Assembly: GCF_001610835.1 (NCBI RefSeq)
Contig: NZ_CP011270.1
Coordinates: 7,871,256-7,935,255 of the forward strand
Reading direction: 5' to 3'
Origin: Planctomyces sp. SH-PL14
Lineage (GTDB): Bacteria; Planctomycetota; Planctomycetia; Planctomycetales; Planctomycetaceae
DNA length: 64,000 bases
Part shown: positions 13,756 to 31,444 of the stretch, one piece after another
Numbering within the stretch: the stretch's first letter is position 1
Layout: every line of letters starts with the position of its first letter
Translations under genes and position numbers: made by a program
Notes under the pieces: generated by a model
What the model was told of the DNA's origin: nothing
The model's database searches: none
What the model saw: only the letters and a program-made list of their open reading frames with translations

Positions 13756-13791
13756 CCTCGACAGTTCTGACACAGACGCGCACGCGCACAC

Positions 13792-15131: not shown

Positions 15132-15215
15132 CGAGACTCCGTTGTGCTGGGAAAAGAGAAACGCCCCGTCAGCCGCGAGGGCCGCCGGGGCGAATAGCCG
15201 ATGGGACCTGCCGCC

Positions 15216-15806: not shown

Positions 15807-15829
15807 CTGGATAAACTCCGTGAATTGGT

Positions 15830-16356
15830 CTCCGCCGCGTTGTCGGCAAAACTCTTCGGCGGAGACTGGTGACTTCGGCCGTGGGGAACGTCCCCGCGGC
15901 CTTTTCTTTTGACACGTCCCCCGCGGGAAACGTGACCTCGCGGACTCGCCGGGCGTCCAACATGCTGCCGATGGCCTCTTGGGCCATCACCAACGCCTCG
16001 TCTTGGTTGCCAGCGTTGTGGACAAGGATTTCAACGCTCTCGTAGCCCCGAATCTCGAAGCGGTGGCGTTAGCCCCAACGAGGGACAAGCGAGGGCAGCC
16101 CAGCGTCGAGGCCAGCGGCCTCCGCGATCTCGTCAGCAGCCGCAATGGAACGCCCGGAGACCTGACGCATCACGGACGAAACGAACTCCGCAGGAGACGC
16201 TCCGGGCGGCGATCGGAAAGCCTTCGGCCTGATCCAGACGCGAAGCTCGCCGGCCGCGTTCCGGGACACGCCGGCCTGCCCGTGGAACGCCTTTCCCACT
16301 GTGATGCGGGCCTCCCCGAGGCTCGATTCTTGGGCCGGCTCGGCCGTGTCGATCAT
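15830..16356 (-). pseudogene. Disrupted paralog of 15216..15806 (in-frame TAA at 16069-16071 and a later frame change)
   Basis: Translation MIDTAEPAQESS...AEFVSSVMRQ...PRWG*RHRFEIRGYESVEILVHNAGNQDEALV... aligns to P1 (MIDVVKQEK...ADFAAEELRA...FEDVEILVSNSFGDDEVAV) across the stop. Confidence 0.4.
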
Positions 16357-16647
16357 CTGTCGACCTCCCTTCAAAAGAGAAACCCCGCTGGCCGCCAAGG
16401 GTGAAGCTTGGCGACCGCGGGGTCGGAGCATCGGACGGCCAGCACGCCGCCCGATCGATTGTTTTGCCCTCCACCCCGGTCCCTTCACCGAACCAGCGTG
16501 GCGTGTTGGCTGGGAATATAGAGCCCTTTCCCCCCTGCGGAAAGCACAAAATCACTATGTGCTTTTCACAAATGCACCACACAGTGCGTAAGTGATTTGC
16601 CGTTCATTACTTGCCGTCTCTAGGATTTTTGAACAGAGGGGGCAAAC

Positions 16648-16935
16648 TTGGCGCGTTCCACCGTCACGCTGACAGAGATTGAAGCCTTGGCCGCGGACCT
16701 TGAACGGTCCGCTGGGCGGCTGCGCAAGGCGATTGCGGACGCCAGGGCTTCGGGGATTGATTCGCTACAGCTTCATTGGTCGAGGGCCAGCGGAGCCCAT
16801 TTGTCAGCAATTGGCCGGGTGGCAAAAGATGCTGAGGTTCAGGCAGATGACGCCGCAAGGGCCAAGAGCCTGGGGATCAAGACGGCGGCGGAGTCGTACA
16901 AGGCTACTGCGGCGAAACGTAAGGCTCGCGGATAG
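16648..16935 (+). CDS. Small hypothetical protein (TTG start), first gene of the lower-GC module
   Basis: 95-aa ORF preceded by GAGGGGG. It follows an AT-richer 100-bp promoter-like region at 16540-16647. Confidence 0.4.
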   Translation: MARSTVTLTEIEALAADLERSAGRLRKAIADARASGIDSLQLHWSRASGAHLSAIGRVAKDAEVQADDAARAKSLGIKTAAESYKATAAKRKARG

Positions 16936-17031
16936 GCACAGTCGCTCTCCAGGCTTCGTTGTGAAGCCGGTTTACCCCACACGGAGGCCGGGGGTATTCT
17001 TCGGCCACACCCCGTGTTAGGAAGGGTCCAC

Positions 17032-18243
17032 ATGCCATTCGCGTATCGTGACACGGACGGCAGCTTTAGTGTCGTCCACTCGGCGAATGCCGCCCCCGGA
17101 GACGTCGAGGCATTCGAACTCCCCGCCGACTTTCGAAAGTGTCCTGGAAGCGCATACAGGAGGGAGGGCGACTGCCTCGTCCCTGACACGCAGAAAAACT
17201 TCGAACGCGAAGAAGCTGCTCGATCCGCCTGCGCCAAGGAGGTCAGCGAAAACTGGACAACCGGACTAGACATGCCTGAGCCCGTAGTTCTGGATCCAGA
17301 ATCGGTAACGTTTGGGGATGCGGACCAGTTTTCGCAATCAATTGTAGAAAAGGCCGCCGCCCGTGGCCTGATTTTGATTTCATCTTCCGTTCGTAAGTTG
17401 GTCAACTTGGCGTTCTACGGGAGCCTTGAAGAGGAAGAAGGACGCTGTTATCCGATTAGACTAGAGCTGATTGCCCCGGGCGCATTTCCTCGCCACAGAG
17501 GTGAGATTCTGCGATTCGAGGATAGCAAGGAAGTGACACCTCGCGTACTGGCGAGATTGGCTCCCGGGCTCGACCCAACGCAATCAAACTTCTTGATTGA
17601 GCAAGGCCCGCCATTGAAACTTTGGGGGATAGGAATTCGCGACAGGTCGCTGTACCGATGGACGACCAATGACTTAAACACGTCCGACTTCTCTCGGCCT
17701 CCGCGGGGCTTGGTTGTACGGAGCGTCGGCCCGGGACACCTGATTGCCGAATACGCCAATACTCGCTTGGGTGAGTTTAAACGAGGCGTGTTCTTCGAGA
17801 ATTTTGTACAAGTGTTTTCGGACGACGGCCCAATAAGGCGATTCCTAGACGGAAACAAGCTGGATGTGCATTTCGCCGACTCATCCATCCGTGACACTAC
17901 GCACCGCCTCGTTTCGAAGTGTGCGGAGAGCGGCCACGGTGGGCTCATCGCCATAGTTGGGAACAACGATTTGGAGGCATTGGCATCGGGCGGCTTAATT
18001 GATCGCGGCGTGTCAATCGGCTGGCCGGCCGTTGAGTCATACTTGAAAGGTAGAGGCGAACTTTGTGAGAGGCCCGGTGCCAAGTACGACACGTCAACCG
18101 ACGAAGCCATGAGTGATATTTGGCTGACGGGCACAGGGGCAATCCTGAGAGACAAAGCTTCCATGATGTATTCATATCGGCACTTGCAATGGCTAGCATC
18201 GCTGAAAGGAGCGACCGGACGTTATGAAGCTGCCGAGGAATAA
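17032..18243 (+). CDS. Unknown ~300-aa N-terminal domain fused to the first half of a diadenylate cyclase (DAC/DisA_N) domain; terminated by a TAA that splits the DAC domain
   Basis: RBS AGGAAGGG-5-ATG at 17032. The C-terminal ...ESGHGGLIAIVGNNDLEALASGGLIDRG... matches the CdaA/DisA 'GALIV...YIETG' block. The same frame continues after a single stop into the 18286 ORF. Confidence 0.55.
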   Translation: MPFAYRDTDGSFSVVHSANAAPGDVEAFELPADFRKCPGSAYRREGDCLVPDTQKNFEREEAARSACAKEVSENWTTGLDMPEPVVLDPESVTFGDADQFSQSIVEKAAARGLILISSSVRKLVNLAFYGSLEEEEGRCYPIRLELIAPGAFPRHRGEILRFEDSKEVTPRVLARLAPGLDPTQSNFLIEQGPPLKLWGIGIRDRSLYRWTTNDLNTSDFSRPPRGLVVRSVGPGHLIAEYANTRLGEFKRGVFFENFVQVFSDDGPIRRFLDGNKLDVHFADSSIRDTTHRLVSKCAESGHGGLIAIVGNNDLEALASGGLIDRGVSIGWPAVESYLKGRGELCERPGAKYDTSTDEAMSDIWLTGTGAILRDKASMMYSYRHLQWLASLKGATGRYEAAEE

Positions 18244-18285
18244 TGGCGACTTCGAGCAGGCGAATTAATCGATGCAATAGACGCG

Positions 18286-18615
18286 GTGAGTTTCTTGGCC
18301 CATCCTGACGGTGCATTGATACTCGGCACCGGCCTGCAAGTGTACTCATTCTCCTCGAAGATTCAGAATGTGCAGCAGGTGTCGGTATATCGTGCAAAGG
18401 ATGCATCGGCCTCAATGATTGAGCCGTTTTCATCCAAAGAACTTGGGACGCGACATCGTTCCGCGATTTGGCTAGCAAGCTGCCTTCCGAACAGTTGTGT
18501 TTTTGTAATTTCCGAGGATGGGGTCGTTTCCGCCATAAGACAATGGAAAGGCAGGCTCATCCTTTGGCGGCCAATTACTACCGGCAGGTTCGACACGGTT
18601 TCAGGAACGAATTAG
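18286..18615 (+). CDS. Second half of the DAC (c-di-AMP synthase) domain, with DGA and GTRHR motifs; same frame as the upstream ORF, 14 sense codons after its TAA
   Basis: ...FLAHPDGALILGTG...PFSSKELGTRHRSAIWLAS...CVFVISEDGVVSAIRQ parallels B. subtilis CdaA PLHDGAVII...ISKELGTRHRAA...TIVVSEETGGVSVA. Confidence 0.55.
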   Translation: MSFLAHPDGALILGTGLQVYSFSSKIQNVQQVSVYRAKDASASMIEPFSSKELGTRHRSAIWLASCLPNSCVFVISEDGVVSAIRQWKGRLILWRPITTGRFDTVSGTN

Positions 18616-18891
18616 CGTGCTTGTCAAGTTGCTTCCTACTAAGCCCGCCGCGCGGTCGTTGGGAGCTTACGCCACCGTGGACTTGCATCCGGATGAATTC
18701 CGGGACTGGCCTGCGAACCTATAGGTCTGCCATGAGTCTATCGGGCAGAGCGTTTTAGAAGTCAGGCAAGAACCTTCCCGTGTTACGGCGAGATCCCGGC
18801 AAGCCACTGAAGAGATAATCTTTCGTCGCAGGTGACCAGGTGAATTCGCGGCAGTGTCGGTTGTTGTTCAGTACGTTGTTGACGAGGCAAA

Positions 18892-19698
18892 TTGATGGAA
18901 GACGCTGCCTGCTACATGTGCGACCGGCCAGCCACGTCGAGGGAGCACGTCCCCCCGAGATGTCTTTTCCCCGAGATGAAGGACATCGGCGAGAATCACC
19001 GCGTCAACCTCCTGACGGTCCCTTCCTGCGACGAACACAACAGCGGGAAGTCAGCCGACGATGAGTTCCTGATGGCAAGTTTGGCCGGCATGACAGGGAA
19101 CAACCGAGTTGGAATTCTGCACAAGTTCTCAAAGGTCAACAGGGCGATCTTCCGTAGTTCTTTCGGCCTGCTGGACCAGGCGCTGTCGGACCAAACGATC
19201 GAATGGCTTGAAGTCTCGCCTGGGACGTTCCTAGATGTAACTTGGGGAAAGCCAGACTACGCCCGCTTGGCAAGGTGCTTCGAGCGAATCGCACACGGAA
19301 TGCACCTCTGCCACTTTGGACAAAGATTTCGAGGGACACTGAAATACTTGTTCGACTTTCCGACCAAGGATGGGCACTGGTCGGAGTCGGATGACGTTGG
19401 ACGAAGGAAGTTCGTCGAAGAATTCGACGGAAAACCGCGTCTTGGAAGTAATCCGGAGGTGTTCACCTACCAGTTCTCGATACCGGACCAATTAGGAGTG
19501 GCCAGCGCGCATTTTCAGTTTTACGGCAGTATGAACATCTATGTCGCCTTCTACCCCGGCCAGATCCAGCGTCTCATAGAACTGATGAATGAGGCGCGTG
19601 GAGTCGCCAAGCCCGTGTACGCGTGGCTGGGAGGAAAGCTCTACGCATTGAATTCAGCCGCGGTTGAAGATGACGGTGCATCACTCAGGGACCTTTGA
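18892..19698 (+). CDS. HNH-endonuclease-domain protein (N-terminal CxxC...H...C..HN motif) with an uncharacterised ~200-aa C-terminal domain
   Basis: CYMCDRPATSREHVPPRCLF...VPSCDEHNSGKS is a canonical HNH/His-Me finger. 268 aa, lower-GC codon usage like the DAC gene, GAGG RBS. Confidence 0.7.
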   Translation: MMEDAACYMCDRPATSREHVPPRCLFPEMKDIGENHRVNLLTVPSCDEHNSGKSADDEFLMASLAGMTGNNRVGILHKFSKVNRAIFRSSFGLLDQALSDQTIEWLEVSPGTFLDVTWGKPDYARLARCFERIAHGMHLCHFGQRFRGTLKYLFDFPTKDGHWSESDDVGRRKFVEEFDGKPRLGSNPEVFTYQFSIPDQLGVASAHFQFYGSMNIYVAFYPGQIQRLIELMNEARGVAKPVYAWLGGKLYALNSAAVEDDGASLRDL

Positions 19699-20217
19699 AA
19701 ATCCCCTCCCCAGCCCGGCCTTTCGACCGGGACAGGGTTCATCGAAGGAACCCGACGAGAAGGCGATTCCAACCGCGTCCGCCAAGGTCCTCTGTCTGGG
19801 GCGATTCTCGGCGTCACTCAAGGGGCAGCACTCCGTTCAGCGATTCGCTTGTTTGACCGATAGACGTGAAATGACCCCACTCCCCACAGGTCACTCCAAC
19901 GCAGCAGCGATATCGCCACGCGATGTTGCCCATCATGCAGCATCATGACCGGCAAGAATGTTTGCTCCCAAGGACTTGTCTCCCTGACCAGTCGGCGACG
20001 GGCCTCAAGAGGCAACGCCGAGATCGAATCGTCCGAGCCCTGAATCAGGCGGGCGAGAGGCGCGTATAAGAGTGGGTACGCAAGCATCGCGACGACACAC
20101 AGGACGGCGTATCGAATTCGTCTGGTCAAGTCACACCCCCTGCAGGTCATCGTAGCCTCCCTGTCACGGAGTCAGATGCTATTCCTCGACGCCATACCCT
20201 GTTTGTGCTCCTAACGT

Positions 20218-20300
20218 CCCCGCACTCCGGCGACCAACCGGCGACGGGGATCATCCAAGTTACCACAGATCAGGGTCCGCAGTTGCGGACGGTTCAGCAC
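20218..20300. repeat. ~85-bp direct repeat (copy 1) flanking the WD40 gene; 3'-flank relic of a lost paralog
   Basis: CCCCGCACTCCGGCGACCAACCGGCGACGGGGATCATCCAAGTTACCACAGATCAGGGTCCGCAGTTGCGGACGGTTCAGCAC is ~80% identical to 21629-21712. It contains the hairpin GTCCGCA-GT-TGCGGAC. Confidence 0.6.
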
Positions 20301-20460
20301 GACTAGAACGCGAGCTGCGTCACCCGCTGCTGATCGACACCCGGTGCCGAGTCTCTCGCTGGCCAGGATCAGAGCAGCGACCTTTGTCGCTGGCCCGCAC
20401 GTTCTCGCCGGGCGAATGAGTCGCGGGAGCCCATTTCGTGAGGTAAAATCCGAGACCTCC
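20299..20460 (-). pseudogene. C-terminal remnant of a third paralog of the 21715/22378 family (...DQQRVTQLAF*)
   Basis: The minus-strand frame ends ...VDQQRVTQLAF*, matching the C-termini ...NQQEVATLTRRLETLRDAAILAV and ...SSASVLAV of the intact paralogs. No intact N-terminal part is present. Confidence 0.3.
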
Positions 20461-20530
20461 AAGACACCCGCGTGTGCCTGGGCAGTTGCCAGAGGATGGT
20501 TGGGGCCGTGTTTCAATCGGAGGAGCCGAG

Positions 20531-21595
20531 ATGCGTTGTCATTGGGCAAGAGGCGTGTTGTGTCTTGCCGCCGTTTTGACGTCGTTCCTGTTTTATCCGG
20601 TGGCCGCCGCCGGCCGCATTTTTTCGTCAAAGTTGAGCCTCAGCTTTTCGGCGGATGGAAGACAGATTGCGGTCGGCGGCCGGGGACTGCGAATCTTCGA
20701 CGTCGCCACCGGTCAGCTCCTGGAGACGTTCGGAGATCCCCACCAAGACTTGTTCACCTGCGTCCTCTGTTCCCCCACCGATACGTCGCTAATCGCGGCG
20801 GGCGTACATGGAAAGGGCTTCAAACTGTTCCGGCGCGGGTCGGCCGATCCGATCGTGGAATACCGGACGAATCAGCCTCTAAACCGCGAAGCGATCTTCA
20901 GGAAAGATGGCCAGCGTCTTCTGACCTCGTCCGGCAGAACCGATAACGCAGACCTGAGAAAGTACCAGCTCTGCGAATGGGACGTGACCAGCGGCAAGCA
21001 GATTCGCTCCCTCGAACGCGAGGGGGAGATTCGGGCTTTGGCTGTCTCGCCGAACGGACGTCGGCTGGCCTTCTGTTCCCGAGGCAATGTGGAGGTGCTG
21101 GACTTCGAAACGTGGGACGTATTCGGCGCCGCGGAACTTCCGTTAGGCGAATTCATTGCCAACCCGCGCGTGACGACAGCGGTGTTTGCCGCCGATGATG
21201 GGCCTCTCCATCTCTTCGGAATTGCCAGCCTTCCCGCCCCGCCTAACGGCGTCAACACCAGCACGCGGTGGGTCGTCGACTTTGAGAAGGATGTGATGCT
21301 GCACCGCGAGACAACGTCGGGGGCTCTCTTCGGGGTCGGCACGGCGAACCGCGACGCCATCATCGAAGTGTTCGACGAGCCAGGGCAGGGGCAGACAGTT
21401 CGGTCCCGGCTGGAAAATGGTCATGTCCAGTGGAGATTCCAGACGCCCTTCCGGTGGAAAGAAATGACGTCTCCTTACAGCATCCAAGTCTCGCCGGATG
21501 GAAAGTGGGTGGCGTGGTGCAATGGTGACGCGGTCTGTCTGTTGGACGCCGAGACGGGGACGGACCTGCGAACAATCGAAGTTTCAGACGAGTAG
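20531..21595 (+). CDS. Secreted WD40/beta-propeller repeat protein
   Basis: Signal peptide MRCHWARGVLCLAAVLTSFLFYPVAAAG (RBS GGAGGAG), then repeated ...SADGRQIAVGG.../...SPNGRRLAFCS.../...SPDGKWVAWCN... propeller blades. Confidence 0.7.
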   Translation: MRCHWARGVLCLAAVLTSFLFYPVAAAGRIFSSKLSLSFSADGRQIAVGGRGLRIFDVATGQLLETFGDPHQDLFTCVLCSPTDTSLIAAGVHGKGFKLFRRGSADPIVEYRTNQPLNREAIFRKDGQRLLTSSGRTDNADLRKYQLCEWDVTSGKQIRSLEREGEIRALAVSPNGRRLAFCSRGNVEVLDFETWDVFGAAELPLGEFIANPRVTTAVFAADDGPLHLFGIASLPAPPNGVNTSTRWVVDFEKDVMLHRETTSGALFGVGTANRDAIIEVFDEPGQGQTVRSRLENGHVQWRFQTPFRWKEMTSPYSIQVSPDGKWVAWCNGDAVCLLDAETGTDLRTIEVSDE

Positions 21596-21628
21596 GACGC
21601 GAAAACGATACCGATAGCCTTTATCCCC

Positions 21629-21712
21629 CCGCACGCCGGCGAGCAACCGGCAGCGGCGATCATCCGAGTTGCCAAAGATCAGATGTCCGCAACTCTGCGG
21701 ACGGCTTCAGGG
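21629..21712. repeat. ~85-bp direct repeat (copy 2), 3' flank of paralog gene 21715..22233
   Basis: See the 20218-20300 repeat. Confidence 0.6.
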
Positions 21713-21714
21713 CA

Positions 21715-22233
21715 TCACACAGCGAGGACGGACGCCGAGGACCTCAGTCGCCGCAGCTTGGACGTGAGCTCGACGAACCACCGGAGGTTTGCCACGCGGG
21801 CCGCTCTACGCTTCTCGATGAAGAACCTGAGATCATTTTGCTTCTGAAGTACCGCCCGGACGATTGGGTGGCGTCGGACCATCCTCCATGAGTACGCGGC
21901 CGGAATTCGCTGTCCCTCAATCGGGTCGAGAAACCCGGCCGCCCGAAGCTTCACCTTTGCGGCCTCCTCGGCCGGCTCCCTCTCGGCCTCGCATTTGTCG
22001 AGACGAGCCTTTGCCGTCTCCAGGACCTTCCGGACATAACCCTCGTAGGCGGTCCGGAACGCGATCTCTTGCTCCATGAGGGAAGGGATCGAGCCCTCGG
22101 GGGCCTCCTGCCGGTTCAACACGAGGTCCTCTCGCAACGACCAAACCACCCGCCGTTCCTGAATCAGTGAACGCGGGAGCCACTCCGCCGCCGGGACGAC
22201 CGGGAGTGTCGAATGCCGCGAATGTGTTCCCAT
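21715..22233 (-). CDS. Hypothetical protein, tandem paralog family member 1
   Basis: 172 aa. Shares N-terminal ...STLPVVPAAEWL... and C-terminal ...LAV with the next gene. Confidence 0.55.
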   Translation of the reverse strand: MGTHSRHSTLPVVPAAEWLPRSLIQERRVVWSLREDLVLNRQEAPEGSIPSLMEQEIAFRTAYEGYVRKVLETAKARLDKCEAEREPAEEAAKVKLRAAGFLDPIEGQRIPAAYSWRMVRRHPIVRAVLQKQNDLRFFIEKRRAARVANLRWFVELTSKLRRLRSSASVLAV

Positions 22234-22377
22234 TGGGGCTCCGTGTGATGGCCGCGGTCGAGAGCCAGGGGGACCGCGGCGGGGAAGTGTGTTTGTGTCC
22301 GGGGCAAGAACCCCGGACGCGGGGAACGACCGCAGGAGATCCCACGGTCGTTCGCCTCGCGTCGGGTCATCAACGGG

Positions 22378-22953
22378 CTACACCGCCAGGATCGCGGCGT
22401 CACGAAGCGTTTCGAGCCGCCTCGTGAGGGTCGCCACTTCCTGCTGGTTGGTCCGCATCAGCGACAGATATCCCTCGATCTCGCCGGCGACGCCGTCCCG
22501 CTTGTCCTTGGCCCCGCGGACGTGCGGGTGGCGGATGAGCATGTCCGGCGTATACGTTCCCATTGCCGGGGCACCATTGACGAGTTCGAGGTAGCCCATA
22601 TCGAGCAGCCGGTCGCGGATCGCCTTCTCGGCCGCCTGGGCGTCTTCCCCGCACGTCGTCTCGTAGGCACGGCACTCGGCCACGAGGTCTTTGACGAAGC
22701 CGTCCAGTGACCGGCGGAACTGATACTCGGCCTGCAGCAGCGGGAGGAGTTCAAACTTCGTCGGCTTGAACGACGCGAGGTCGGCCGAGCGAGCGCGTTC
22801 CAGCGAAGCGACAACGGCCGCTCGCTTGGTTTCGATCGCCGCACGCTCCGCGGCAACGGCGTCGCGCAGCTGGTTGAGGGAGTCGGACAACCATTCCGGC
22901 GAGGGGACGGTCGGGAGCGTGGAGAAACTGGGCTGGGTAATGAGAGGTTCCAA
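22378..22953 (-). CDS. Hypothetical protein, tandem paralog family member 2
   Basis: 191 aa, ...STLPTVPSPEWLSDSLNQ...RRLETLRDAAILAV. Homologous to 21715..22233. Confidence 0.55.
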   Translation of the reverse strand: MEPLITQPSFSTLPTVPSPEWLSDSLNQLRDAVAAERAAIETKRAAVVASLERARSADLASFKPTKFELLPLLQAEYQFRRSLDGFVKDLVAECRAYETTCGEDAQAAEKAIRDRLLDMGYLELVNGAPAMGTYTPDMLIRHPHVRGAKDKRDGVAGEIEGYLSLMRTNQQEVATLTRRLETLRDAAILAV

Positions 22954-23024
22954 TATGGAAGAGAGAGGGTTTCGGGCCGAGGACGCCTCGGCCGTGACAG
23001 AGGTTGCCGGTCGTCCGGCGAGAG

Positions 23025-23318
23025 TCAGTTTGCCGGCGAGCCGAGTTCTTCGAGGCGGGCCTTGATGTCGGCCGTCCGCGTGCGGTTCTCAGCCAACAGC
23101 GGATCACCGACGAGCGACCGCCATTGCTCCGACCGAAGGAAGGCGGCGGACAGCGGGAGTTTGTTCAGGATCGCCCGGAACCGTTCGATGACCTCGCACG
23201 TCTGCGGCTCGACGCGGAGGGCGAACGCCTCCAATGCGGTCTCGAACGCCTCCGGGGCGGTCTGGGGGTTGGGAAGCTCGGAGATGGAAGGGGCAGTCGA
23301 CACAGGGAAGCCTTTCAC
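23025..23318 (-). CDS. Small hypothetical protein upstream of the paralog array
   Basis: 97-aa ORF with consistent orientation. No motif recognised. Confidence 0.35.
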   Translation of the reverse strand: MKGFPVSTAPSISELPNPQTAPEAFETALEAFALRVEPQTCEVIERFRAILNKLPLSAAFLRSEQWRSLVGDPLLAENRTRTADIKARLEELGSPAN

Positions 23319-23518
23319 GGAATAGGAGTGAGAACGGACACTCAGGAATGGCCAGTCGTGGTGGCGGCCGGGCGATGTTCAAAGCGAGTCTCCAGCGTGG
23401 GGCCGGCACTGGCCCGAGAGGGGAGCGGCCCACAAGAGCCGCCCCGGTGAATCCGCCTCCGCCCGGACCCCCTTCGAGGCGGAGGCGTGTCCGGCTGGTC
23501 AAGCCGGACGTGTTTCGA

Positions 23519-25501
23519 TCAGCCGTCTGTTTCGACGAGAGCGACGCCGTTCTGCGTCAGGTATTGATTGAGGTTCTTTGTCGCGATCAGAAGCTCGTCG
23601 AGCGTCCGGGCAGAGTCCGCCGTGTTCTTCGCGGTCTGGTCCTCGGCGTTCATCTTGCCGGCCTGAGCCGCCAGCAAACTCTTCTGGTCGTCGCTGATGC
23701 CGAGGTTGAGGGACTCTCGCTTTTGGACACGTCCTTCGAGTTGGGCAGTCTTCTCCTGTGCTGCCTCCAAACCGATCTTTGCCCGCTCCATCGCGGCGTC
23801 GCGGTCACTGAGGACACCGCCGGTCCGCAGGTCGTCGACCCGCTTAAGACGTTTGGCACGCTTTTCGGCCGGCGTCTCGTTGCTCTCGCGGATCTGGTCC
23901 GCCTCGGACGTCATCTGGTCGAAGTCCGCAACGGACCTCTCTACGAAGGGCTTCGTAGCCTCAGCCAGTCCTACCGCCTTGGTCGACATGTTCCGCCCCC
24001 ATGACGAGGCATTCTTGAATGCCTTGAAGCCGAGTCTCTTGGCTACGTCGAGGGAGGACGCCTTCTTGGGTTCCGTCGCGGCCTGCTCGTCCTTGATCCT
24101 GGTCTCCTCATCCCGAAGGGCTTGGAGGTTCTCGCGATTGGCATCGCGTCTCGCCTCGGCGTCCTTGATGTCTTGGCGAAGGGAGTCCAGCTCGGAGGAG
24201 CCGGCTCTATTGTCCAGCGCCCAGTTTCCCCAAGTGTTGCTCTCTTTCAGGTTGTTCTCGGCGTTCGTCACTCCGTCGACAGACCCTTGCAGCTCGACCT
24301 CGGCCATCCGGATCTTCTCGGCGATGTCCTTCCGGCGGTCCCCAAGGTTGGTCTTGGCCCGGTTGTCGTCGAGGGACTTCTGCGTCCGCTTGCGATCGAC
24401 GTCCTCAAGCTCGGAGTTCAGCCGCTTGGAGATGGCAAGCTGTTTGTTGTACTCCTCGGTCTGACTCGCCCATCGAGCGATTGCCGCACCGATCGCGGTG
24501 GCGATCGCCGCAATGGCGAGCAATCCCCCTCCGCCGCTCGCGATGGCCCCGATGCCCTTCATGGCCTTCATGACCCCGCCAGCGGCACTGACGACTTGGG
24601 TGAAGCCCAGACTGACGCCGGTCGCCGCGATGCCGAAGGCAGTGAGGGCCGATCCAGCGACCGCGGCACCGGCGGAAATCTTGCCGAAGGTCGTCACTGA
24701 ATCTTCGTGCGTCTTCAACCAGGCCGTCGCCTGCGGGATTCCCTCCTTGAACCAGTTGATCCAGTCCGTCAGCTCGCCGGCCACGGCGGCCCCGATGGCG
24801 TTCTTGACGCCGCCGATCGCCATTTGCAGCTCGTCGAGAGCGTCGCCGAGGGCCGCGGCGGCCTGAGCGTCCTCGGTCGTCATCGTGATGCCGAGTTCCT
24901 CGGCCGACTTCACCAGCTCTTCGATCCCCTTCCGTCCGCCGGACAGCATCGGGATCAGCTCCGTTCCCGACTTACCGAAGACCTTCATGGCCAGAGCAGT
25001 CCGTCTCGACGGGTCCTCAACGCGGGACAGAGCCTCGGCGATGGCCAGGAGTGCCTGATCGGGGCTCTTACCCTTCAGGTCACCAACGGAAAGGCCGAGG
25101 TTCCGGAGGGACTCGACCGCCCCCTTTGACTCCTCGTCGGCGGAGTAGAGGGAACGGGACATGGCGACGATCGCCTTCTCGCACGCCTCGATGCTCGTGC
25201 CGCTCATTTGGGCCGCATACCGCAGCTCGCTGATGAACTTGACGGCAACGCCCGTCCGCTGGGACATGTCGTCGATTGCACTGCCGGCGTCGGCGTATGA
25301 CTTCGAGAGGGCCAGCATTCCGGTTGCGGCACCCGCTCCGGCCGCGGAGAGCAGTGCCCCGGCCTTCGTCGCGAACGAGCCGAACGCTTTCAGGCGGTTC
25401 TGCATCGTCGTCAGCGACTTGTCGAGCTTGCCGTCGACGGCGACGAACGTTACGTGGGCCTTCCCGCTCTCAATTGAGCCCGCCGGGGCTTGTTCAGACA
25501 A
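23519..25501 (-). CDS. Phage tail tape-measure-like protein (TP901-type core region)
   Basis: 660-aa ORF, Ala/Gly-rich with coiled-coil and hydrophobic segments. ...KVFGKSGTELIPMLSGG... resembles the TMP core motif. No other tail genes are adjacent. Confidence 0.6.
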   Translation of the reverse strand: MSEQAPAGSIESGKAHVTFVAVDGKLDKSLTTMQNRLKAFGSFATKAGALLSAAGAGAATGMLALSKSYADAGSAIDDMSQRTGVAVKFISELRYAAQMSGTSIEACEKAIVAMSRSLYSADEESKGAVESLRNLGLSVGDLKGKSPDQALLAIAEALSRVEDPSRRTALAMKVFGKSGTELIPMLSGGRKGIEELVKSAEELGITMTTEDAQAAAALGDALDELQMAIGGVKNAIGAAVAGELTDWINWFKEGIPQATAWLKTHEDSVTTFGKISAGAAVAGSALTAFGIAATGVSLGFTQVVSAAGGVMKAMKGIGAIASGGGGLLAIAAIATAIGAAIARWASQTEEYNKQLAISKRLNSELEDVDRKRTQKSLDDNRAKTNLGDRRKDIAEKIRMAEVELQGSVDGVTNAENNLKESNTWGNWALDNRAGSSELDSLRQDIKDAEARRDANRENLQALRDEETRIKDEQAATEPKKASSLDVAKRLGFKAFKNASSWGRNMSTKAVGLAEATKPFVERSVADFDQMTSEADQIRESNETPAEKRAKRLKRVDDLRTGGVLSDRDAAMERAKIGLEAAQEKTAQLEGRVQKRESLNLGISDDQKSLLAAQAGKMNAEDQTAKNTADSARTLDELLIATKNLNQYLTQNGVALVETDG

Positions 25502-25746
25502 CGAAGACTCCTTGAATGAAATGGGGGGCTCGGCGCGGACCGTAGGCCCCGTGGAACTCGAAAACCTGTGGCCTGAAACCGCCTATGCGGTGGGCGGCGA
25601 CTGCGTGTCGCCGGCAGCCCCGATTTCGCGAAATGCTGGAATTTGTTTACGCGTGTAAATACCTACAGGGTGGGCACCTCGCTGGCGTAGAGGGAAAAGC
25701 GTTTCGGCTCAGGAAGGACCCGCGAACCGCTCATGCTCCTCTGCGT

Positions 25747-26106
25747 TCATGGAACGCCTTGAACGGGTCGGCTAGATTGCTGGAGAACGCGGCCTTCTCG
25801 TCCATTCTCTTGCGAGCCTCCATGATCCTTGGAACGGTTCATTGTGGAACACACGGCGAGTGCCGCGGTGCTTTTGTGTGTCAGCATCTTGCCCGCGGTT
25901 CGGGCCTCGGCTTCTACCAGCCGGACGCTCCATCCTCTGAGGGCGATGAGATCGAAGAGGAAACTGCGTGGTGCGGAAGCTGTGAATGCGTGCGAGTGGA
26001 ACAAGGGGGATGGAACGACATATCGGAAGCGTTCGCCTCTCCCGTCTTGATCTGTGAACACTGCTTCGAGGCGGTCCGTGGACGGAACGAGCAAGGCCAC
26101 GAACAA
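25747..26106 (-). CDS. Hypothetical protein (island); alternative to a Cys-rich plus-strand ORF 25585..26115
   Basis: 119-aa ORF co-oriented with neighbouring island genes. The choice between the two strands is uncertain. Confidence 0.25.
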   Translation of the reverse strand: MFVALLVPSTDRLEAVFTDQDGRGERFRYVVPSPLFHSHAFTASAPRSFLFDLIALRGWSVRLVEAEARTAGKMLTHKSTAALAVCSTMNRSKDHGGSQENGREGRVLQQSSRPVQGVP

Positions 26107-26118
26107 CGCAGCTAGGGG

Positions 26119-26328
26119 TCAGGCTTGCTCAGTCGTAACGATGCCCCACACTTTGACCGAGCACATCTTCTCGCTGACGTCCTTGTAGGCGTCTTTCGTG
26201 TTGATTTCCGAACCGGTCTGAAGAACCAGGACGGCAGTCCCGGTCGGGCTTCGGCGCACAACGGAGATCGAACCGAGTGGGATTGTGACCAGACCTAAAC
26301 CCTCGGCGTGAACCTGTACTGCGGGCAT
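26119..26328 (-). CDS. Small hypothetical protein
   Basis: 69-aa ORF co-oriented with island genes. Confidence 0.3.
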   Translation of the reverse strand: MPAVQVHAEGLGLVTIPLGSISVVRRSPTGTAVLVLQTGSEINTKDAYKDVSEKMCSVKVWGIVTTEQA

Positions 26329-26380
26329 TCATTGGTGTCCTGAAAGGGAAGTGGAAGAGGGACGAACCGGAGAGCGTCGA

Positions 26381-26593
26381 CTACTTCGGCAGGCGAGAGA
26401 TCGGCTTCCGAGGCCACTTGGCGGCGTCGAACCTCGCCTGCATCCTTGCGGCCTCAGCCTTCGCTGCGGTGGCCTCCGCCTGAGCCTTCCTCAAGTCCGC
26501 CTTCGCGACTTCGAGCTTCCGCACGAGGGCGGCCTCTCGCATCGCATCTGCAGCCTGAAACGAGCTGGGCTTCTTGATTCGGGAAACGTTCAC
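26381..26593 (-). CDS. Small coiled-coil protein (hypothetical)
   Basis: 70-aa Ala/Lys-rich ORF. The iteron-like repeats lie in its upstream region. Confidence 0.35.
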   Translation of the reverse strand: MNVSRIKKPSSFQAADAMREAALVRKLEVAKADLRKAQAEATAAKAEAARMQARFDAAKWPRKPISRLPK

Positions 26594-26611
26594 TTCGAAC
26601 TCCTGGGGGTT

Positions 26612-26806
26612 GGAATGGACAACGACTTCAACGACTTCAACGGTTTCACCCGGGTATGTGTTCCCGCCGAGGGGCCGTTGAATGTGGGTTTGAGAAGAGA
26701 AAACACGCCCGTGTGAAGCCGTTGAAGTTGTATAAGTCGTTATATGTATTTCTAGAAAACAGACTTACATCACCGACGACTTCACACATTTCAACGACTT
26801 CATCAC
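26612..26806. repeat. Iteron-like cluster of >=8 copies of the 9-mer AACGRCTTC in direct and inverted orientation around an AT-rich core (candidate element origin/Rep-binding region)
   Basis: AACGACTTC|AACGACTTC|AACGGTTTC at 26621-26647. Inverted GAAGCCGTT-GAAGTTGT-ATAAGTCGTT at 26716-26744. AT-rich TATATGTATTTCTAGAAAAC. GACGACTTC...AACGACTTC at 26776-26803, overlapping the stop of the primase-like gene. Confidence 0.5.
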
Positions 26807-28335
26807 GAGGCTGCGGCAGCCAGCTCACCGACGGCGACCGGCTCGGCCGGAGCGAACGCGGCGGCATAGAAGGTCGCCGTCCTGCTCTTCCCGCTCATCG
26901 TCTGGACTTTCCGAATGATGTCCGTCGCCTCAAGCTCGGTGACCAACTCGTAGCGATAGCGGGCACCCATTCGCTGAAACCGGATGGTGACCTGTGACTG
27001 CGTCGCTCCGCCGCGTCCCTTCTCAGTGATGAACGCGACAATGGCCGCCTTGTCTCGCTCACGTTCGTTCTCGCCGACCTTCGATGCACACTTCATGTTT
27101 GCAACGGTCAGCCAGTCGGTGAGGGCGATCGCCCAATCCATGTGGGCCTTCTCGATGCTGAAGTCTCGGTCGATGGGGACCTGTGAGGCCGCGAAGATGA
27201 GGGCGAGACTGCTGGCCCGTTCCGCGGCTCGGGCGTAAATCGAAGCTCCCTCGTCCTCGGTGTAGGTGGCCGCCAGGACGTCGCACCGGCGGCGGAACCG
27301 TTCCCAAGCGAGCTTGGCTTCCGGCGTCACGGGAATCGTCCGCATCTCGCCGGGCTCCCATGTCACGTCGCCCTCATGGGGCCGGTATTTCGCCGCAACC
27401 TTCATCCGGTTGAGGAGGGGCTCCGGGATCGGGACAGCTTCGACGCTCTGGTGGAGCGGTCGCGAGCTGTCGTCGCCGTAGAACACGAACCGCGAGTTGA
27501 ATCCGTCTCGGTTGTTCTCCGCCGTCAGGAATCGAAGCGACTCCGGCGTGCCGGTCGCATAGATCACCAAATGCGGCATGTCGATGACGCGGTCCTTGTC
27601 TGAATCGGCGAACTTCTTCGGGACGAAGTTGCGGAGACCGCAGGACGTGAACAACCGCATGATGAGAGAGATCAGCAGCACGAGGGGGCCGGACGCCTTT
27701 TCGTCGTTGGCGACCCTTAGGAACTTCCCGAACTCGTCGAGGGGCCACAGACCGGCCGGTTGCGTGCTGAGGGCGTCTGCCAACGCGGAATCGCTCGTCA
27801 TGTCGCCTGGCAGGATGTACTCGGGACAACCGGCGGCCGTGGCGACCTCATTGAACGCCTCCAACACGCGGTTCTTACCGGCTGCGGACTTCGCGAACGT
27901 CGCAACGAAGATGTTGCCCTTTGCCCCCAGCGACCTTTTGATCTTGCGGCCGATGAGGCACGAGACGAGGCAGATGCCCCCCAGCAGAGCGAGGACGGGC
28001 TGCGGACGCGGGGACGTCCGGACGGTGTAGTAGGCGAAGTCCACCAGGGCGCCGGCGTGTCCGTAGAACTCGCGGGGGAGTCCGTCCTGACCCGGCTCGA
28101 TTTCGAACTCATTGCACATGGTCGAGACGAACTCATCGAAGCTCGCCTCATCGGGAATGCCGTAGTGGCGATGGCCGCTGTGGTCGTCGACGTAGTCTCT
28201 CAGCTCATCGGCCGACCAATCACGTTCCCTTGTCAGTCGTGCGATTGCCTTGATCGACGCCCGCATGAAGAGCTTGTCGAATCGGGACGATGGGTTGCCC
28301 GCGAGAAACGACAGGTCGCGGCTTTCAAAATCCAT
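26803..28335 (-). CDS. Element replication/primase-like protein (DUF3987-like; function inferred from context)
   Basis: 510-aa ORF at the far end of the island next to the AlpA-like gene, as in P4-like islands. Degenerate P-loop-like FAKSAAGKN. No confident catalytic motif. Confidence 0.5.
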   Translation of the reverse strand: MDFESRDLSFLAGNPSSRFDKLFMRASIKAIARLTRERDWSADELRDYVDDHSGHRHYGIPDEASFDEFVSTMCNEFEIEPGQDGLPREFYGHAGALVDFAYYTVRTSPRPQPVLALLGGICLVSCLIGRKIKRSLGAKGNIFVATFAKSAAGKNRVLEAFNEVATAAGCPEYILPGDMTSDSALADALSTQPAGLWPLDEFGKFLRVANDEKASGPLVLLISLIMRLFTSCGLRNFVPKKFADSDKDRVIDMPHLVIYATGTPESLRFLTAENNRDGFNSRFVFYGDDSSRPLHQSVEAVPIPEPLLNRMKVAAKYRPHEGDVTWEPGEMRTIPVTPEAKLAWERFRRRCDVLAATYTEDEGASIYARAAERASSLALIFAASQVPIDRDFSIEKAHMDWAIALTDWLTVANMKCASKVGENERERDKAAIVAFITEKGRGGATQSQVTIRFQRMGARYRYELVTELEATDIIRKVQTMSGKSRTATFYAAAFAPAEPVAVGELAAAAS

Positions 28336-28456
28336 TTGGCTCGTTGCCTTCCGTTCACCTGAGAGAGTGTTTGAAGGCCGAGTGGGGAAGGCGAAGAACC
28401 CACCCGGCCGCCGCGGGACATGACCCCCGTGGTTTACGGTGCTGCGGACGATGCCG

Positions 28457-28702
28457 TTACGCGGACTGCGTCGTCGCCTTGCCGGGCTTCCGCTTCGGGC
28501 AGCCCGCCGCGAGCCAGGCGTCGATCGACAATCGCGTCCATCGTTTCAGCTTCCCGAAACGAACCGGCTGCGGAAGAGTTCCGTCCGCGTCCATTCGGCG
28601 AACCTGTCGGAGCGAGATCCCGATTCGCTTGGCGAGGTCCGCCGCCGAATGCGTGTCAGCATGGGTGGCGGGCGGCGTCTGATGGATCGATTTCATGTTC
28701 AT
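28457..28702 (-). CDS. alpA: AlpA/excisionase-family HTH regulator
   Basis: ...AADLAKRIGISLRQVRRMDADGTLPQPVRFGKLKRWTRLSIDAWL matches the AlpA/HTH_17 pattern (LxxxLxxSxxTIYRxxxxGxFPxPxKxGxxxxRWxxxExxxWL). Confidence 0.75.
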   Translation of the reverse strand: MNMKSIHQTPPATHADTHSAADLAKRIGISLRQVRRMDADGTLPQPVRFGKLKRWTRLSIDAWLAAGCPKRKPGKATTQSA

Positions 28703-28946
28703 CGCGTGTTCGATTGGTGTCTTTGAGTGTCCCTCTATAGAACCCGGGACTGTGGCCTCTGGTTTTCGCGCCGTAAGGGGTTGCGTCGACGCCAGTCGTT
28801 CCCGAATCGGCGCAAGTTATGTAAGGCTCCCCTGATAAAACCTGGGTCAATCTCGAAGATCGACGTAAGCGTTTCGGAACGCCTGGGCGCACATCTGGAC
28901 TGCCCTGGAAACGAAAAGACCCGCCATTTGGCGGGTCCGATGCGAT

Positions 28947-29771
28947 TCAGAAGCGTTGTTTCTTGGGCTTCTTTCTGGACTTGGCCCTTCGACGTTTTTC
29001 GCCCAGTTCCTGAGCGTCCTGACGCTTCATCCGTCCCCAATCGTCCTCCATCCAGCTCATGACGCGGTCGACCCGTGGCACCGTCCTCTTGTCTGTGTCG
29101 TTGGGGTCGACTTCGCTGGACCCCCAAAAGCTGAAGATCCTCAACCGCTTCAGACCAGACTGATCATCGTACCCCAGGTGATCGGAGATGGCCTTGTTGG
29201 TCATCTTGCCGCCGGAGTGGAACAGAAGCCCCGTGGCGATGACGTCCTTCCACTCGTCTCCGATCCGATCAATCGTGCCTTTGAAGTCGATCTGCGCCTC
29301 CTCTTCGGGCGAGTCCGGATGAAACACCATCTGCAGACGGATGCGGCGAATCAGGATGTGGGCGACGTCGCGAGCCGTATGCCAGCGGTCCCATAGACGG
29401 TCCGGAATCAGCCGCAGTTCTCCAGAGACCGGCGAAGCGTCGTGGATCGCCTCCAAGGCGTCGCACGCCCCCAGGAAGGGCGTAGTGTCGAACTGACGCG
29501 AATGGTCGCACCACGTTGCCAGGATGTTCGTCAGCGCACGGAACTCGGGCAGCTCCTCAAGGGCGTAGCTGGTCGCATCGTCCGGATCGGCGTCCTTCTG
29601 GCTCGGCCCCCAATTCGAGAGCCAGAGCCAAAGTTCCAAGAGGGTGTCGAGCGGCTCGCGGCCCTTGCCGAGCTTCTCGGCCCACGCCCTTCGCGACGCA
29701 GTTTCAGACAGCAGCCCTTTCGCGTAGCTCGCCCATTTGTCGACGTCTCCGCCGAAGTCGCTGACCTTCAT
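28947..29771 (-). CDS. Hypothetical protein (island-border gene)
   Basis: 274-aa ORF. No motif recognised. Ends KKPKKQRF. Confidence 0.5.
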   Translation of the reverse strand: MKVSDFGGDVDKWASYAKGLLSETASRRAWAEKLGKGREPLDTLLELWLWLSNWGPSQKDADPDDATSYALEELPEFRALTNILATWCDHSRQFDTTPFLGACDALEAIHDASPVSGELRLIPDRLWDRWHTARDVAHILIRRIRLQMVFHPDSPEEEAQIDFKGTIDRIGDEWKDVIATGLLFHSGGKMTNKAISDHLGYDDQSGLKRLRIFSFWGSSEVDPNDTDKRTVPRVDRVMSWMEDDWGRMKRQDAQELGEKRRRAKSRKKPKKQRF

Positions 29772-29892
29772 CGTGAACCTCTTTCATCCTGACGGGGTCC
29801 AGAACATGCGTCCCGGGCCGCCTGTAGTGTGCAACGAAGTGTGCAGATTCGAAACCGGCCCTGTTTCCCTTGGGAATCGCAGCAGGTTTCAG

Positions 29893-29907
29893 GTCCATCC
29901 GGGATCA
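29893..29907 (+). repeat. attR-like direct repeat of the tRNA-Val 3' end (GTCCATCCGGGATCA)
   Basis: Exact 15-mer copy of 13849-13863. Flanking bases also partly match (TTCAGGTCC vs TTCGAGTCC). Confidence 0.55.
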
Positions 29908-29983: not shown

Positions 29984-30057
29984 GTCCTCGTGGAGTAGCC
30001 CGGAGTACTCGCACCCTGTCACGGTGGAGATCGGGGGTTCAAATCCCCTCGGGGACG
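29984..30057 (+). tRNA. tRNA-Asp (anticodon GTC)
   Basis: Acceptor GTCCTCG/CGGGGAC, D-stem GAGT/ACTC, anticodon arm GCACC-CTGTCAC-GGTGG (one G-G mismatch), T-arm GGGGG-TTCAAAT-CCCCT, discriminator G. Confidence 0.7.
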
Positions 30058-30163
30058 CCTTTTCGCTCGCGCCGTGCGGGCGGAGAAGGGCCGCGGGAGT
30101 GTGTGTGCGTCTGGAAAGTCAGTGATCTGCCTCTCGGGCGGTGAAGCGTGATCGGCGGGAATC

Positions 30164-30289
30164 GGGAGGGCGAAGCTCCTGCTGAGCCGCGCAGGCTCCT
30201 GACCGCGTCCAGTCTCTCCTTTGGCCTGTGTCCAAAAATCATCGAGCGCGTCGGCCACCGCCGCGGCTCAGCAGGAGCCTCGCCCTCCC
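30164..30289. repeat. Long imperfect hairpin: 28-bp inverted repeat (GGGAGGGCGAAGCTCCTGCTGAGCCGCG / CGCGGCTCAGCAGGAGCCTCGCCCTCCC) with 70-nt spacer between tRNA-Asp and tRNA-Tyr
   Basis: Arms 30164-30191 and 30262-30289, one mismatch. No ORF, no T-tail. Confidence 0.6.
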
Positions 30290-30370
30290 GGCAACATCAA
30301 CTTTCGGGATGCACACTCCATCCGACTTGCTCGGGTCGAGAGCGGTGCCGTCCATTTCATTGAGCAACTT

Positions 30371-30452
30371 GCGTCGGCTGGGCATTGGTGAGCCCTGGTG
30401 GCCGTAACCCACCCGCCTTCAGGCTGTGGCGGTTCAACTCCGTCCCGACGCA
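30371..30452 (+). tRNA. tRNA-Tyr-like (anticodon GTA), class II, non-canonical C8 and C33
   Basis: Acceptor GCGTCGG/CCGACGC, D-arm GGGC-ATTGGTGA-GCCC, anticodon arm GGTGG-CCGTAAC-CCACC, 14-nt variable arm, T-arm GGCGG-TTCAACT-CCGTC, discriminator A. Confidence 0.5.
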
Positions 30453-30491
30453 CTTTCGATTGCCTGGCGTTTCGCCCCGCGATCAGTTTCA

Positions 30492-30577
30492 GGAAGGGAG
30501 CCGGATACGGTTTGCCGGGCCGGCTTGCTAAGCCGTGCGGCCTCCGGGCCATGAGGGTTCGAGTCCCTCGCCTCCCG
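30492..30577 (+). tRNA. tRNA-Ser-like (anticodon GCT), class II; acceptor stem has mismatches
   Basis: Anticodon arm CCGGC-TTGCTAA-GCCGT, long variable arm GCGGCCTCCGGGCCAT, T-arm GAGGG-TTCGAGT-CCCTC, G73. The 5' acceptor GGAAGGG vs 3' GCCTCCC leaves two mismatches. Confidence 0.45.
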
Positions 30578-30683
30578 CTCATAGGAACTGGGCTACAGAT
30601 GAACGCCGATGATCACGGCTCAAGAGAGGGATCTCCAACTTCCGCCGCGGAAAACTGAAGACTGAAAACCAACAACTGACAAC

Positions 30684-30755
30684 CGTCCTCGGAGTGTGAG
30701 GGACAGCACGCGACCTTGCGAAGGTCGTAGATCAGGTTCGACTCCTGGCGAGGAC
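30684..30755 (+). tRNA. tRNA-Arg-like (anticodon GCG), otherwise canonical cloverleaf
   Basis: Acceptor GTCCTCG/CGAGGAC, D-arm GTGT-GAGGGACA-GCAC, anticodon arm CGACC-TTGCGAA-GGTCG, T-arm TCAGG-TTCGACT-CCTGG, discriminator A. Position 8 is G, and a GCG anticodon is unusual. Confidence 0.5.
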
Positions 30756-30798
30756 ATCGGAGCTGCGGCTCCACAGACGGAGCTGCGGCTCCTTCAAC

Positions 30799-30870
30799 GA
30801 CGCTGATGCCAGACGGTCTGGCGGCGGCCTGCAAAGCCGCCCCGCGCGGGTTCGACTCCCGACAGCGTCT
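30799..30870 (+). tRNA. tRNA-Cys (anticodon GCA)
   Basis: Acceptor GACGCTG/CAGCGTC, D-arm GCCA-GACGGTC-TGGC, anticodon arm GCGGC-CTGCAAA-GCCGC, T-arm GCGGG-TTCGACT-CCCGA (one mismatch), discriminator T. Position 8 is A. Confidence 0.55.
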
Positions 30871-30976
30871 CTTTCAGGCAAGAACCGTTGCCCCCTCTTT
30901 CCAGCGGCGGACGGCCGCCCCTTCCCGGGGTTCGGCCCGTCTGTTCCGGACATGGTTTGTGACTGGAGGGGATCGA

Positions 30977-31049
30977 TGGCGGTTAGCTCAGCAGGTAGAG
31001 CACCAGACTCAGAATCTGGACGTCGCGGGTTCGACTCCCGTACCAACGC
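30977..31049 (+). tRNA. tRNA-like gene with class-I architecture but anticodon CAG (Leu) and two acceptor-stem mismatches; possible pseudo-tRNA
   Basis: D-arm GCTC-AGCAGGTA-GAGC, anticodon arm CCAGA-CTCAGAA-TCTGG, T-arm GCGGG-TTCGACT-CCCGT. Acceptor TGGCGGT vs ACCAACG pairs poorly. No long variable arm. Confidence 0.35.
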
Positions 31050-31444
31050 CGGCTAGTCACCGGCAGCACCCGGGGGTCTCTCAGGAGACCTCCACCATGA
31101 AGCCCCAGGGAGAAGAGCGTCTGCTGGATCGGCCTGTGTTGCGGTTCGCCGCGGCGAGGCAGCATGGCCAGCGGCCCTGAAGGGCGCGGAGTCCGCCGCG
31201 AGCCTCGTTCGGCAACGGGGCGTCTACGGTCCGATCGATGAGTCCCGCGGTTCGCCTCGGGTCGAAGACCGGTCTCGAAGACGCCTCGGCACCGATCGAA
31301 GCCACGGCTCAACCGCCCTCCGCCGCGATCCGTGTGATCGGCAGCTGTCTCGTCTGTCTGGGGTGTTTCTTCAAGCAAGCGCGTGTGCGCAGAAAGACCG
31401 GGGCCGGATGCTCCGGGCGGCTGGTCCTCCGAAAGGGGAGGTGG

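Follow-up and report, generated by a model that had tools for sequence, protein, structure and literature searches.

The chromosome of Planctomyces sp. SH-PL14 carries an island of about 16 kb that is integrated in tRNA-Val and bounded by attachment-site (att) repeats, at positions 13849-29907 of the 64-kb stretch of chromosomal DNA analysed here (the window). Within this island, an array of short repeats (26621-26801) adjoins the 3' end of the gene for a 510-aa DUF3987 helicase-like protein (26803-28335, minus strand), and it is discussed below as a candidate replication origin of the element. On the minus strand, the order is a 274-aa open reading frame (ORF) with a terminator, an 81-aa protein, the 510-aa helicase, the array, a 70-aa ORF, further ORFs and a 660-aa protein. 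The helicase stop codon occupies 26803-26805 and the last unit of the array ends 1 nt away, at 26801, in agreement with a preliminary description of this DNA, which had placed the repeats against the 3' end of this gene.

The array consists of three blocks of 27 nt, each built of three units of 9 nt, and comprises eight recognisable 9-mers of the AACGACTTC type and one degenerate unit. Block A (26621-26647) is direct and contains two exact copies of AACGACTTC, at 26621 and 26630, and AACGGTTTC at 26639, with two mismatches. Block B (26715-26741) is inverted relative to A and C and is formed by GAAGCCGTT (26715), GAAGTTGTA (26724, two mismatches) and TAAGTCGTT (26733). Block C (26775-26801), direct on the plus strand, is composed of GACGACTTC at 26775, the degenerate middle unit ACACATTTC at 26784 and AACGACTTC at 26793. 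The region is free of coding signal in the analysis of third-position GC content (GC3). The small gene noted earlier beside the repeats is the coiled-coil ORF of 70 aa that follows block A (26381-26593, minus strand), with a GTG start and AGGAG 6 nt upstream.

The clustering of these units is far stronger than composition would predict. The exact motif AACGRCTTC occurs seven times in the window against 1.33 expected, a count reached in none of 100 shuffles, and four of the seven copies fall in the array region. When one mismatch is allowed, six 9-mers lie in 195 bp, where the remainder of the window would predict 0.098 (Poisson probability about 1e-9); with up to two mismatches, the 195-bp array region holds eight against 0.9 expected, and the other 195-bp windows of the 64 kb reach a maximum of three matches. 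The island has this single cluster, the remaining matches being isolated single copies. The direct and inverted 9-mers first reported within 195 bp are thus real, and the shuffle check argues that they are not a product of chance. An exact copy at 15058, in the integrase gene, stands alone and is consistent with chance. The sole other local excess, three one-mismatch 9-mers in 77 bp (62461-62537), lies inside a glycosyl-hydrolase-like ORF and is probably fortuitous.

Blocks B and C enclose an AT-rich core (26742-26774), a candidate DNA-unwinding element that begins with the string TATATGTATTTCTAGAAAAC (26742-26761) and contains a conserved AAGTC motif. The 40-mer from 26731 is 75% A+T, a value attained by no 40-mer elsewhere in the 64-kb window, so the core, first described as the AT-richest sequence of its neighbourhood, is also that of the whole stretch. 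The repeats had been said to surround this core, which is correct for blocks B and C but not for block A, located beyond B across a 67-nt spacer (26648-26714). In gene orientation, this spacer contains CACACGGGCGTGT, the polypyrimidine tract TTTTCTCTTCTC, a small GC hairpin and ACACATACCCGGGTG.

The 510-aa protein, the proposed initiator, has a Walker A-like motif AKSAAGKN and a Walker B-like motif LWPLDEFG. The NCBI entry of the identical protein (AMV22330.1) names it a DUF3987 domain-containing protein, and its homologues carry PF13148 (DUF3987). It matches phrog_3022, a PHROG annotated as 'DNA primase', with an E-value of 3e-44, at profile positions 365-785 of 788, which correspond to the C-terminal helicase part only. 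The initial label 'primase-like' is therefore replaced here by helicase, since the match concerns the DUF3987 helicase alone and no primase domain is recognised. A PDB sequence search with the helicase matched no chain, SaPI Rep structures included.

The part of this protein proposed to read the repeats is a C-terminal winged-helix domain, residues ~415-495 (26851-27093, minus strand), recognised with AlphaFold2 and Foldseek. Residues 415-510, modelled alone, fold with a mean predicted local distance difference test score (pLDDT) of 79 and the topology H-b-H-H-b-b. The top Foldseek matches in the PDB are all winged-helix domains (TFIIIC tauB, PadR, MarR and Orc1), with probabilities of about 1.0, and the C-terminal ~80 aa are thus confidently predicted to form a DNA-binding domain of the winged-helix type. 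This domain diverges faster than the ATPase core: the two are 52% versus 89% identical in the related protein P0003, and 44-48% versus 74-76% in the 66-68% identity group.

Conservation was followed in a family of seven proteins at 63-97% identity and two further metagenome loci, which together with the window locus (WIN) give an alignment of ten loci in four groups; related loci are labelled L001, L002 and so on, and related proteins P0003, P0009 and so on. A locus search with the family alignment found no relatives in genome contigs or viral contigs and two in metagenome contigs, and in the profile search the family stayed at seven close and three distant proteins, the alignment of the distant members being too divergent to serve as a seed for a locus search. 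Neighbouring genes in the homologous loci are typical of planctomycetes (PSCyt, PSD1, DUF1501).

All nine homologous loci have the same layout of about 200 nt 3' of the helicase stop codon. Repeats begin at the stop codon and are followed by the conserved AAGTC, the AT-rich core, the polypyrimidine tract, the small GC hairpin, TGTGT(A/G)CCC(C)GGG, further repeats and, as a rule, the next gene's ribosome-binding site. Ten of 11 loci have their overall AT-richest 40-mer at 40-135 nt past the helicase stop codon. The TGTGT(A/G)CCC(C)GGG motif with its flanks and the CT-rich polypyrimidine tract are kept in all ten aligned loci, and the small GC hairpin of the spacer shows compensatory changes across them. 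In the close group, L005 (97% protein identity) and L009 (94%), the 9-mers are retained at the same offsets, and between WIN and L009 the blocks are 93% identical and the spacers 67%. The units of L001 (85%) and L003 (79%) stand at the WIN offsets with different words, GAACTTGTT/GAAGTTATG and GAGGTTATC, respectively, and the good-degenerate-good pattern of block C recurs at the same position in L005, L009, L001 and L003. The group at 59-68% identity keeps the layout, the AT core, the shared motifs and an inverted repeat close to the stop codon. On conservation in homologous islands, a check proposed in the preliminary description, the array is kept with respect to its place in all of them and its words in close relatives, and the repeats themselves are undetectable in the 59-68% group.

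The decay of the repeats in that group is what would be expected if the array were a non-functional relic or a chance stretch of low-complexity intergenic sequence. This explanation is scarcely credible in view of the enrichment (P ~1e-9), the stronger conservation of blocks than of spacers, the conserved unit positions across loci and the presence of independent arrays after distant DUF3987 genes.

Two of these distant genes are followed by arrays of their own. In L011 of Ancylobacter oerskovii (25% identity), an island with int, AlpA and a RepB_primase-DUF3987 gene, GGACATGCCTTCGA / CGAACATGGCT repeats in both orientations extend from the stop codon (10388-10638), followed by about 50 nt of almost pure A+T and a tandem pair of the 9-bp CGAACATGG. 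Beyond this array come a terminator (10733-10765) and a RelE gene in convergent orientation. In L013 (3988-4115), a metagenome contig of unassigned origin whose protein is 23% identical, three direct and three inverted CACAACGG units lie directly past the stop codon, together with a purine tract; the contig stops 128 nt past the stop codon, so an AT-rich core is not assessable there. The L013 array also contains CACACCGGGAAC, similar to the spacer motif of the window. With P0009 as query, the genome scan recovered its own genome and, beyond that, just the truncated relative L016 (1849-4600, Ancylobacter sp. Lp-2), a P0009-like gene that has no C-terminal ~100 aa and no repeat array after it. 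A single rearrangement may have removed both the domain and the array; as evidence on the array this locus is uninformative, since both are absent.

The inverted repeats of the region also raise the possibility of a secondary structure, either an RNA stem-loop of a polycistronic transcript, acting in processing, stability or attenuation, or a DNA cruciform. Blocks B and C form an inverted repeat with 27-nt arms, 74% complementary and 35 nt apart, and blocks A and B with their flanks form one with 43-nt arms that are 81% complementary. The folding z-score is about -4 for both DNA and RNA, lies between -3 and -5 across the close group, and falls to -8 and -7.4 against shuffles in L011 and L013. 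Such a reading has a precedent in pRN1, where a stem-loop lying 3' of the gene for a helicase-winged-helix protein serves as the origin (PMC4234260); in this version the array would still be an origin. In L001, L003 and L007, however, there is little tendency to form hairpins (z -0.4 to -1.2), and RNAalifold on the ten loci yields no conserved long helix (-0.56 kcal/mol). No Rfam match was obtained between 25500 and 29000 at E-values up to 1, and a plain hairpin needs neither a 9-nt periodicity within its arms nor a third block. A purely structural role is thus very improbable.

Comparison of loci also indicates which protein the repeats belong to. WIN and L005 have identical iterons and winged helices that are 99% identical, yet between their HTH_17 proteins (a helix-turn-helix, HTH, family) identity is just 61% and the HTH helices differ. 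L005 and L003, by contrast, have HTH_17 proteins that are 71% identical and different iterons, the winged helix of L003 being 52-53% identical to that of WIN. A homologue of the 70-aa ORF (51% identity) lies upstream of the helicase gene in L003 and L004, which makes the array separable from this ORF, and L001 has no gene after the array. Together, these sequence comparisons are suggestive of an array that travels with the helicase gene and of an iteron word that tracks the winged helix of the helicase, not the HTH_17 protein.

The same observations bear on the view that the array is a transcriptional control region, with operators for the downstream operon of the 70-aa ORF, the tape-measure-like 660-aa gene and others. 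Candidate regulators are the winged helix of the helicase, HTH_17 and a helper-phage factor, and such a role would be compatible with an origin. Initiator-binding sites frequently double as regulators of transcription. A co-oriented gene usually begins 15-25 nt past block A in the main family, and the most conserved motif of the region, TGTGTACCCGGG, is non-repetitive and might serve a conserved host factor as a promoter element. A promoter scan of the array region, however, found no sigma-70 promoter, and a reading of the repeats as promoters of the extracytoplasmic function (ECF) type (GGAAC/GAAAC ... CGT) was dropped on inspection because the spacing is inconsistent between groups. The L011 array lies between convergent genes and before a terminator, a setting that speaks against a simple promoter or operator role for a gene downstream. 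Moreover, no gene follows the array in L001, the next gene of L003 starts about 200 nt further on, and the 70-aa gene is on the opposite side of the helicase gene in L003 and L004. The iteron word does not follow HTH_17, and an operator does not need a core that is the AT-richest of the locus, framed by opposed repeats. That the array is a transcriptional control region and not an origin is unlikely on this evidence.

Contiguous short repeats, direct and inverted, are also found at partition sites, at the sites of omega-type repressors and at those of terminase small subunits. The array could accordingly be a cis site for packaging (pac/cos-like, used by the terminase of a helper phage) or a centromere-like site for partition, to which a small protein of the island would bind, and the satellite-like content of the island, with its integrase, AlpA-like protein, helicase and tape-measure-like gene, would suit such a function. 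Domain and profile scans, however, detected no terS, parA/parB or ribbon-helix-helix genes in the island, the array accompanies the helicase gene in loci whose downstream content is not the same, and the iteron word appears to follow the helicase winged helix. Both roles are very unlikely.

The array is, rather probably, the vegetative replication origin of the tRNA-Val island, bound by the helicase itself. This reading is preferred because the anatomy of the region matches the characterised origin of Staphylococcus aureus pathogenicity islands (SaPI), with precedents in P4 alpha and pRN1. The candidate origin proposed in the preliminary description thereby gains support from the enrichment, the conservation, the predicted winged helix and the SaPI-like layout (PMC9371898). 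In the mechanism proposed, the island would excise by means of its integrase, perhaps with the HTH_17 protein, and the DUF3987 helicase would bind the 9-bp iterons through its C-terminal winged helix. Since blocks C and B point to each other across the core, two oligomers are proposed to assemble head-on at these blocks, to melt the core and to load themselves as replicative helicases, so that the excised island could replicate autonomously. Priming and synthesis are ascribed to host enzymes, as no primase was found on the island. Block A and the CCCGGG and polypyrimidine motifs may form an auxiliary site, either for extra initiator binding or for coupling replication to expression of the downstream operon.

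Several observations weigh against this interpretation. The search for DnaA boxes found none in the array region of the island, the AT core is only about 35 nt long, and block A and the conserved CCCGGG motif carry no assigned role in the origin layout. On the protein side, Pfam and NCBIfam give no match on the 510-aa protein of the window, and no primase domain was detected in it or in other island proteins with Pfam, NCBIfam and PHROG. The full-length AlphaFold2 model is poor (pLDDT 39.5) and unusable, which limits interpretation to the C-terminal domain, and the Foldseek E-values for the winged helix are marginal (about 1e-3 to 1e-1). Among the relatives, repeat counts in L001 and L003 are marginal (3-4 versus a shuffle maximum of 3), and in the 59-68% group (L002, L006, L007, L008 and L010) no 9-mer is repeated beyond shuffles. 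The covariation of word and winged helix is anecdotal because the family is tiny (ten loci in four groups), and groups G1 and G2 differ in part of the iteron word despite a common putative recognition helix. Finally, no terminator was found at the array, the sole terminator-like match (26552-26571, plus strand) being situated inside the 70-aa ORF. The region is therefore probably co-transcribed with the flanking genes, and in that case its inverted repeats would fold as RNA too, at the z of about -4 given above.

A broader proposal is that DUF3987 helicases are widespread self-loading initiator-helicases, whose winged helix reads iterons located past their own stop codon and arranged in opposed blocks of three around an AT core. 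This generalisation is tentative and rather doubtful. Arrays at the stop codon come from Planctomycetota and from two distant relatives (23-25% identity), of which the first is alphaproteobacterial and the second metagenomic. If it were general, the simple rule of looking just past the stop codon would find the origins of integrase-AlpA-DUF3987 islands, including satellites of the PICMI type. If true, the helicase and origin would form a cassette of about 1.8 kb, a minimal replicon and a candidate for replicating vectors in planctomycetes. Genetic tools for Planctomycetota are sparse.

The limits of the island are set by two att cores. The tyrosine integrase gene (13824-15131, minus strand; PF00589, E 1.7e-11) adjoins tRNA-Val, the attL core GTCCATCCGGGATCA (13849-13863, plus strand) is a 15-mer at the tRNA-Val 3' end, and the same 15-mer forms the attR core (29893-29907, plus strand). 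The island apparently splits a tRNA array into Gly-Ser-Val (13568-13864) and Asp-Tyr-Ser-Arg-Cys-Leu (29984-31050), with 77 nt from the attR core to tRNA-Asp. Elsewhere in the window, ARAGORN gives a probable false positive, a 'tRNA-???' with a two-base anticodon at 49998-50071, within a 912-aa ORF (49715-52453).

The first gene of the helicase operon encodes the 81-aa HTH_17 or AlpA/excisionase-like protein (28457-28702, minus strand). Its matches are weak, that to HTH_17 in Pfam scoring 20.4 bits, under the gathering threshold of 27. A terminator-like hairpin follows the 274-aa ORF (28905-28940, minus strand), CGGACCCGCC...GGCGGGTC and then a T run, which points to a separate promoter for the HTH_17-helicase operon in 28710-28900.

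On the other side of the array, the 660-aa ORF (23519-25501, minus strand) matches tape-measure PHROGs, phrog_8462 with an E-value of 3e-41 over the N-terminal ~300 aa. Its centre is Gly/Ala-rich and membrane-like, and the ORF and three small ORFs are conserved in L003 and L005. The island yielded no other gene for a head or tail. The 660-aa ORF may be a tape measure encoded by the satellite, and the island could be a new kind of phage satellite with its own tape-measure-like gene. Pfam and NCBIfam give no match on the 70-aa, 274-aa and 660-aa ORFs, among others.

A segment of low GC content (54-60%) at 17000-21600 appears to be cargo, with genes for a protein with a DACNV sensor domain (17014-18243, plus strand) and a WD40 protein (20474-21595, plus strand). 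In homologous islands, the equivalent place is occupied by SLFN_AlbA_2, HSDR_N_2 and HATPase_c_3/EMARD_N. This variable cargo is reminiscent of defence hotspots; PADLOC gave no matches on the cargo and island ORFs.

Among known systems, a close parallel is offered by SaPI and related phage-inducible chromosomal islands (PICI). The SaPI origin comprises 6-12 iterons directly 3' of the rep ORF, with an AT-rich centre and at least two iterons per side in opposite orientation, and the SaPI Rep is a self-loading helicase whose C-terminal winged helix reads the iterons (PMC9371898). The array discussed here is likewise located directly 3' of a helicase ORF, in the window and in nine homologous loci; its eight recognisable units and one degenerate unit fit the range of 6-12 contiguous short iterons, and its opposed blocks C and B surround an AT-rich centre. 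The helicase ends in a winged helix, in this case by prediction, the island is small and bears an integrase, and the iteron word varies among related islands. The two differ in the enzyme, which is a DUF3987 protein here (PF13148, a family with a characterised 5'-3' member) and an SF3/MCM-like (superfamily 3/minichromosome maintenance) 3'-5' helicase in SaPI, and in the length of the units, 9 nt against 5-6 nt. The third block A past a conserved spacer, the lack of a detected primase gene and the planctomycete host are further differences.

In satellite P4, the alpha protein joins a DnaG-type primase to an SF3 helicase, its winged helix recognises short repeats, and two separated cis sites, ori and crr, are both needed. 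The combination of helicase and winged helix in alpha (PMC2777425) is matched by the predicted end of the island protein, and both systems have short repeats in both orientations and belong to integrative satellites with an integrase and an AlpA-like regulator. Unlike in P4, no primase domain was found in the island protein, and the island has a single repeat cluster.

The essential cis element of pRN1 is symmetric, lies directly 3' of the gene for a helicase-winged-helix protein and retains its form but not its sequence (PMC4234260). The position is the same in the island, where symmetry may also be kept among relatives without the sequence. In pRN1, however, the element is a 100-nt stem-loop without iterons, the protein is a prim/pol-SF3 enzyme, and the host is archaeal (PMC4234260).

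DUF3987 proteins themselves are known from two settings. In phage-inducible chromosomal minimalist islands (PICMI), a DUF3987 'prim' gene is required for satellite replication, and these and other int-alpA-prim islands share with the present one a tyrosine integrase, a small AlpA/HTH_17 protein (a weak match here) and DUF3987; integration there is next to fis in Vibrionaceae, as opposed to tRNA-Val in a planctomycete (PMC10803314). In the AgaPP/AgaPH elements, a DUF3987 protein has been shown to act as a 5'-3' helicase, in an element that is integrated at a tRNA (PMC11724360). The AgaPH element resembles the island in its DUF3987 helicase and tRNA association; its PriCT domain and its PrimPol partner were both undetected in the island (PMC11724360). 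In the sections available, neither account names an origin (PMC10803314, PMC11724360).

Iteron plasmids of the RepA/pi/TrfA type resemble the array in having repeated initiator sites beside an AT-rich unwinding element and a winged-helix initiator, but they use direct repeats of about 17-22 bp, DnaA boxes and an initiator that is not a helicase (PMC4980987). The array instead has contiguous 9-bp units in both orientations, no DnaA box and an adjacent protein that is helicase-like. The design that joins an initiator-helicase, iterons and an AT core is established in SaPIs, P4 and viral SF3 systems, and the finding extends this known principle. The new elements are the pairing of this design with a DUF3987 helicase, the block grammar of three 9-nt units and the planctomycete host.

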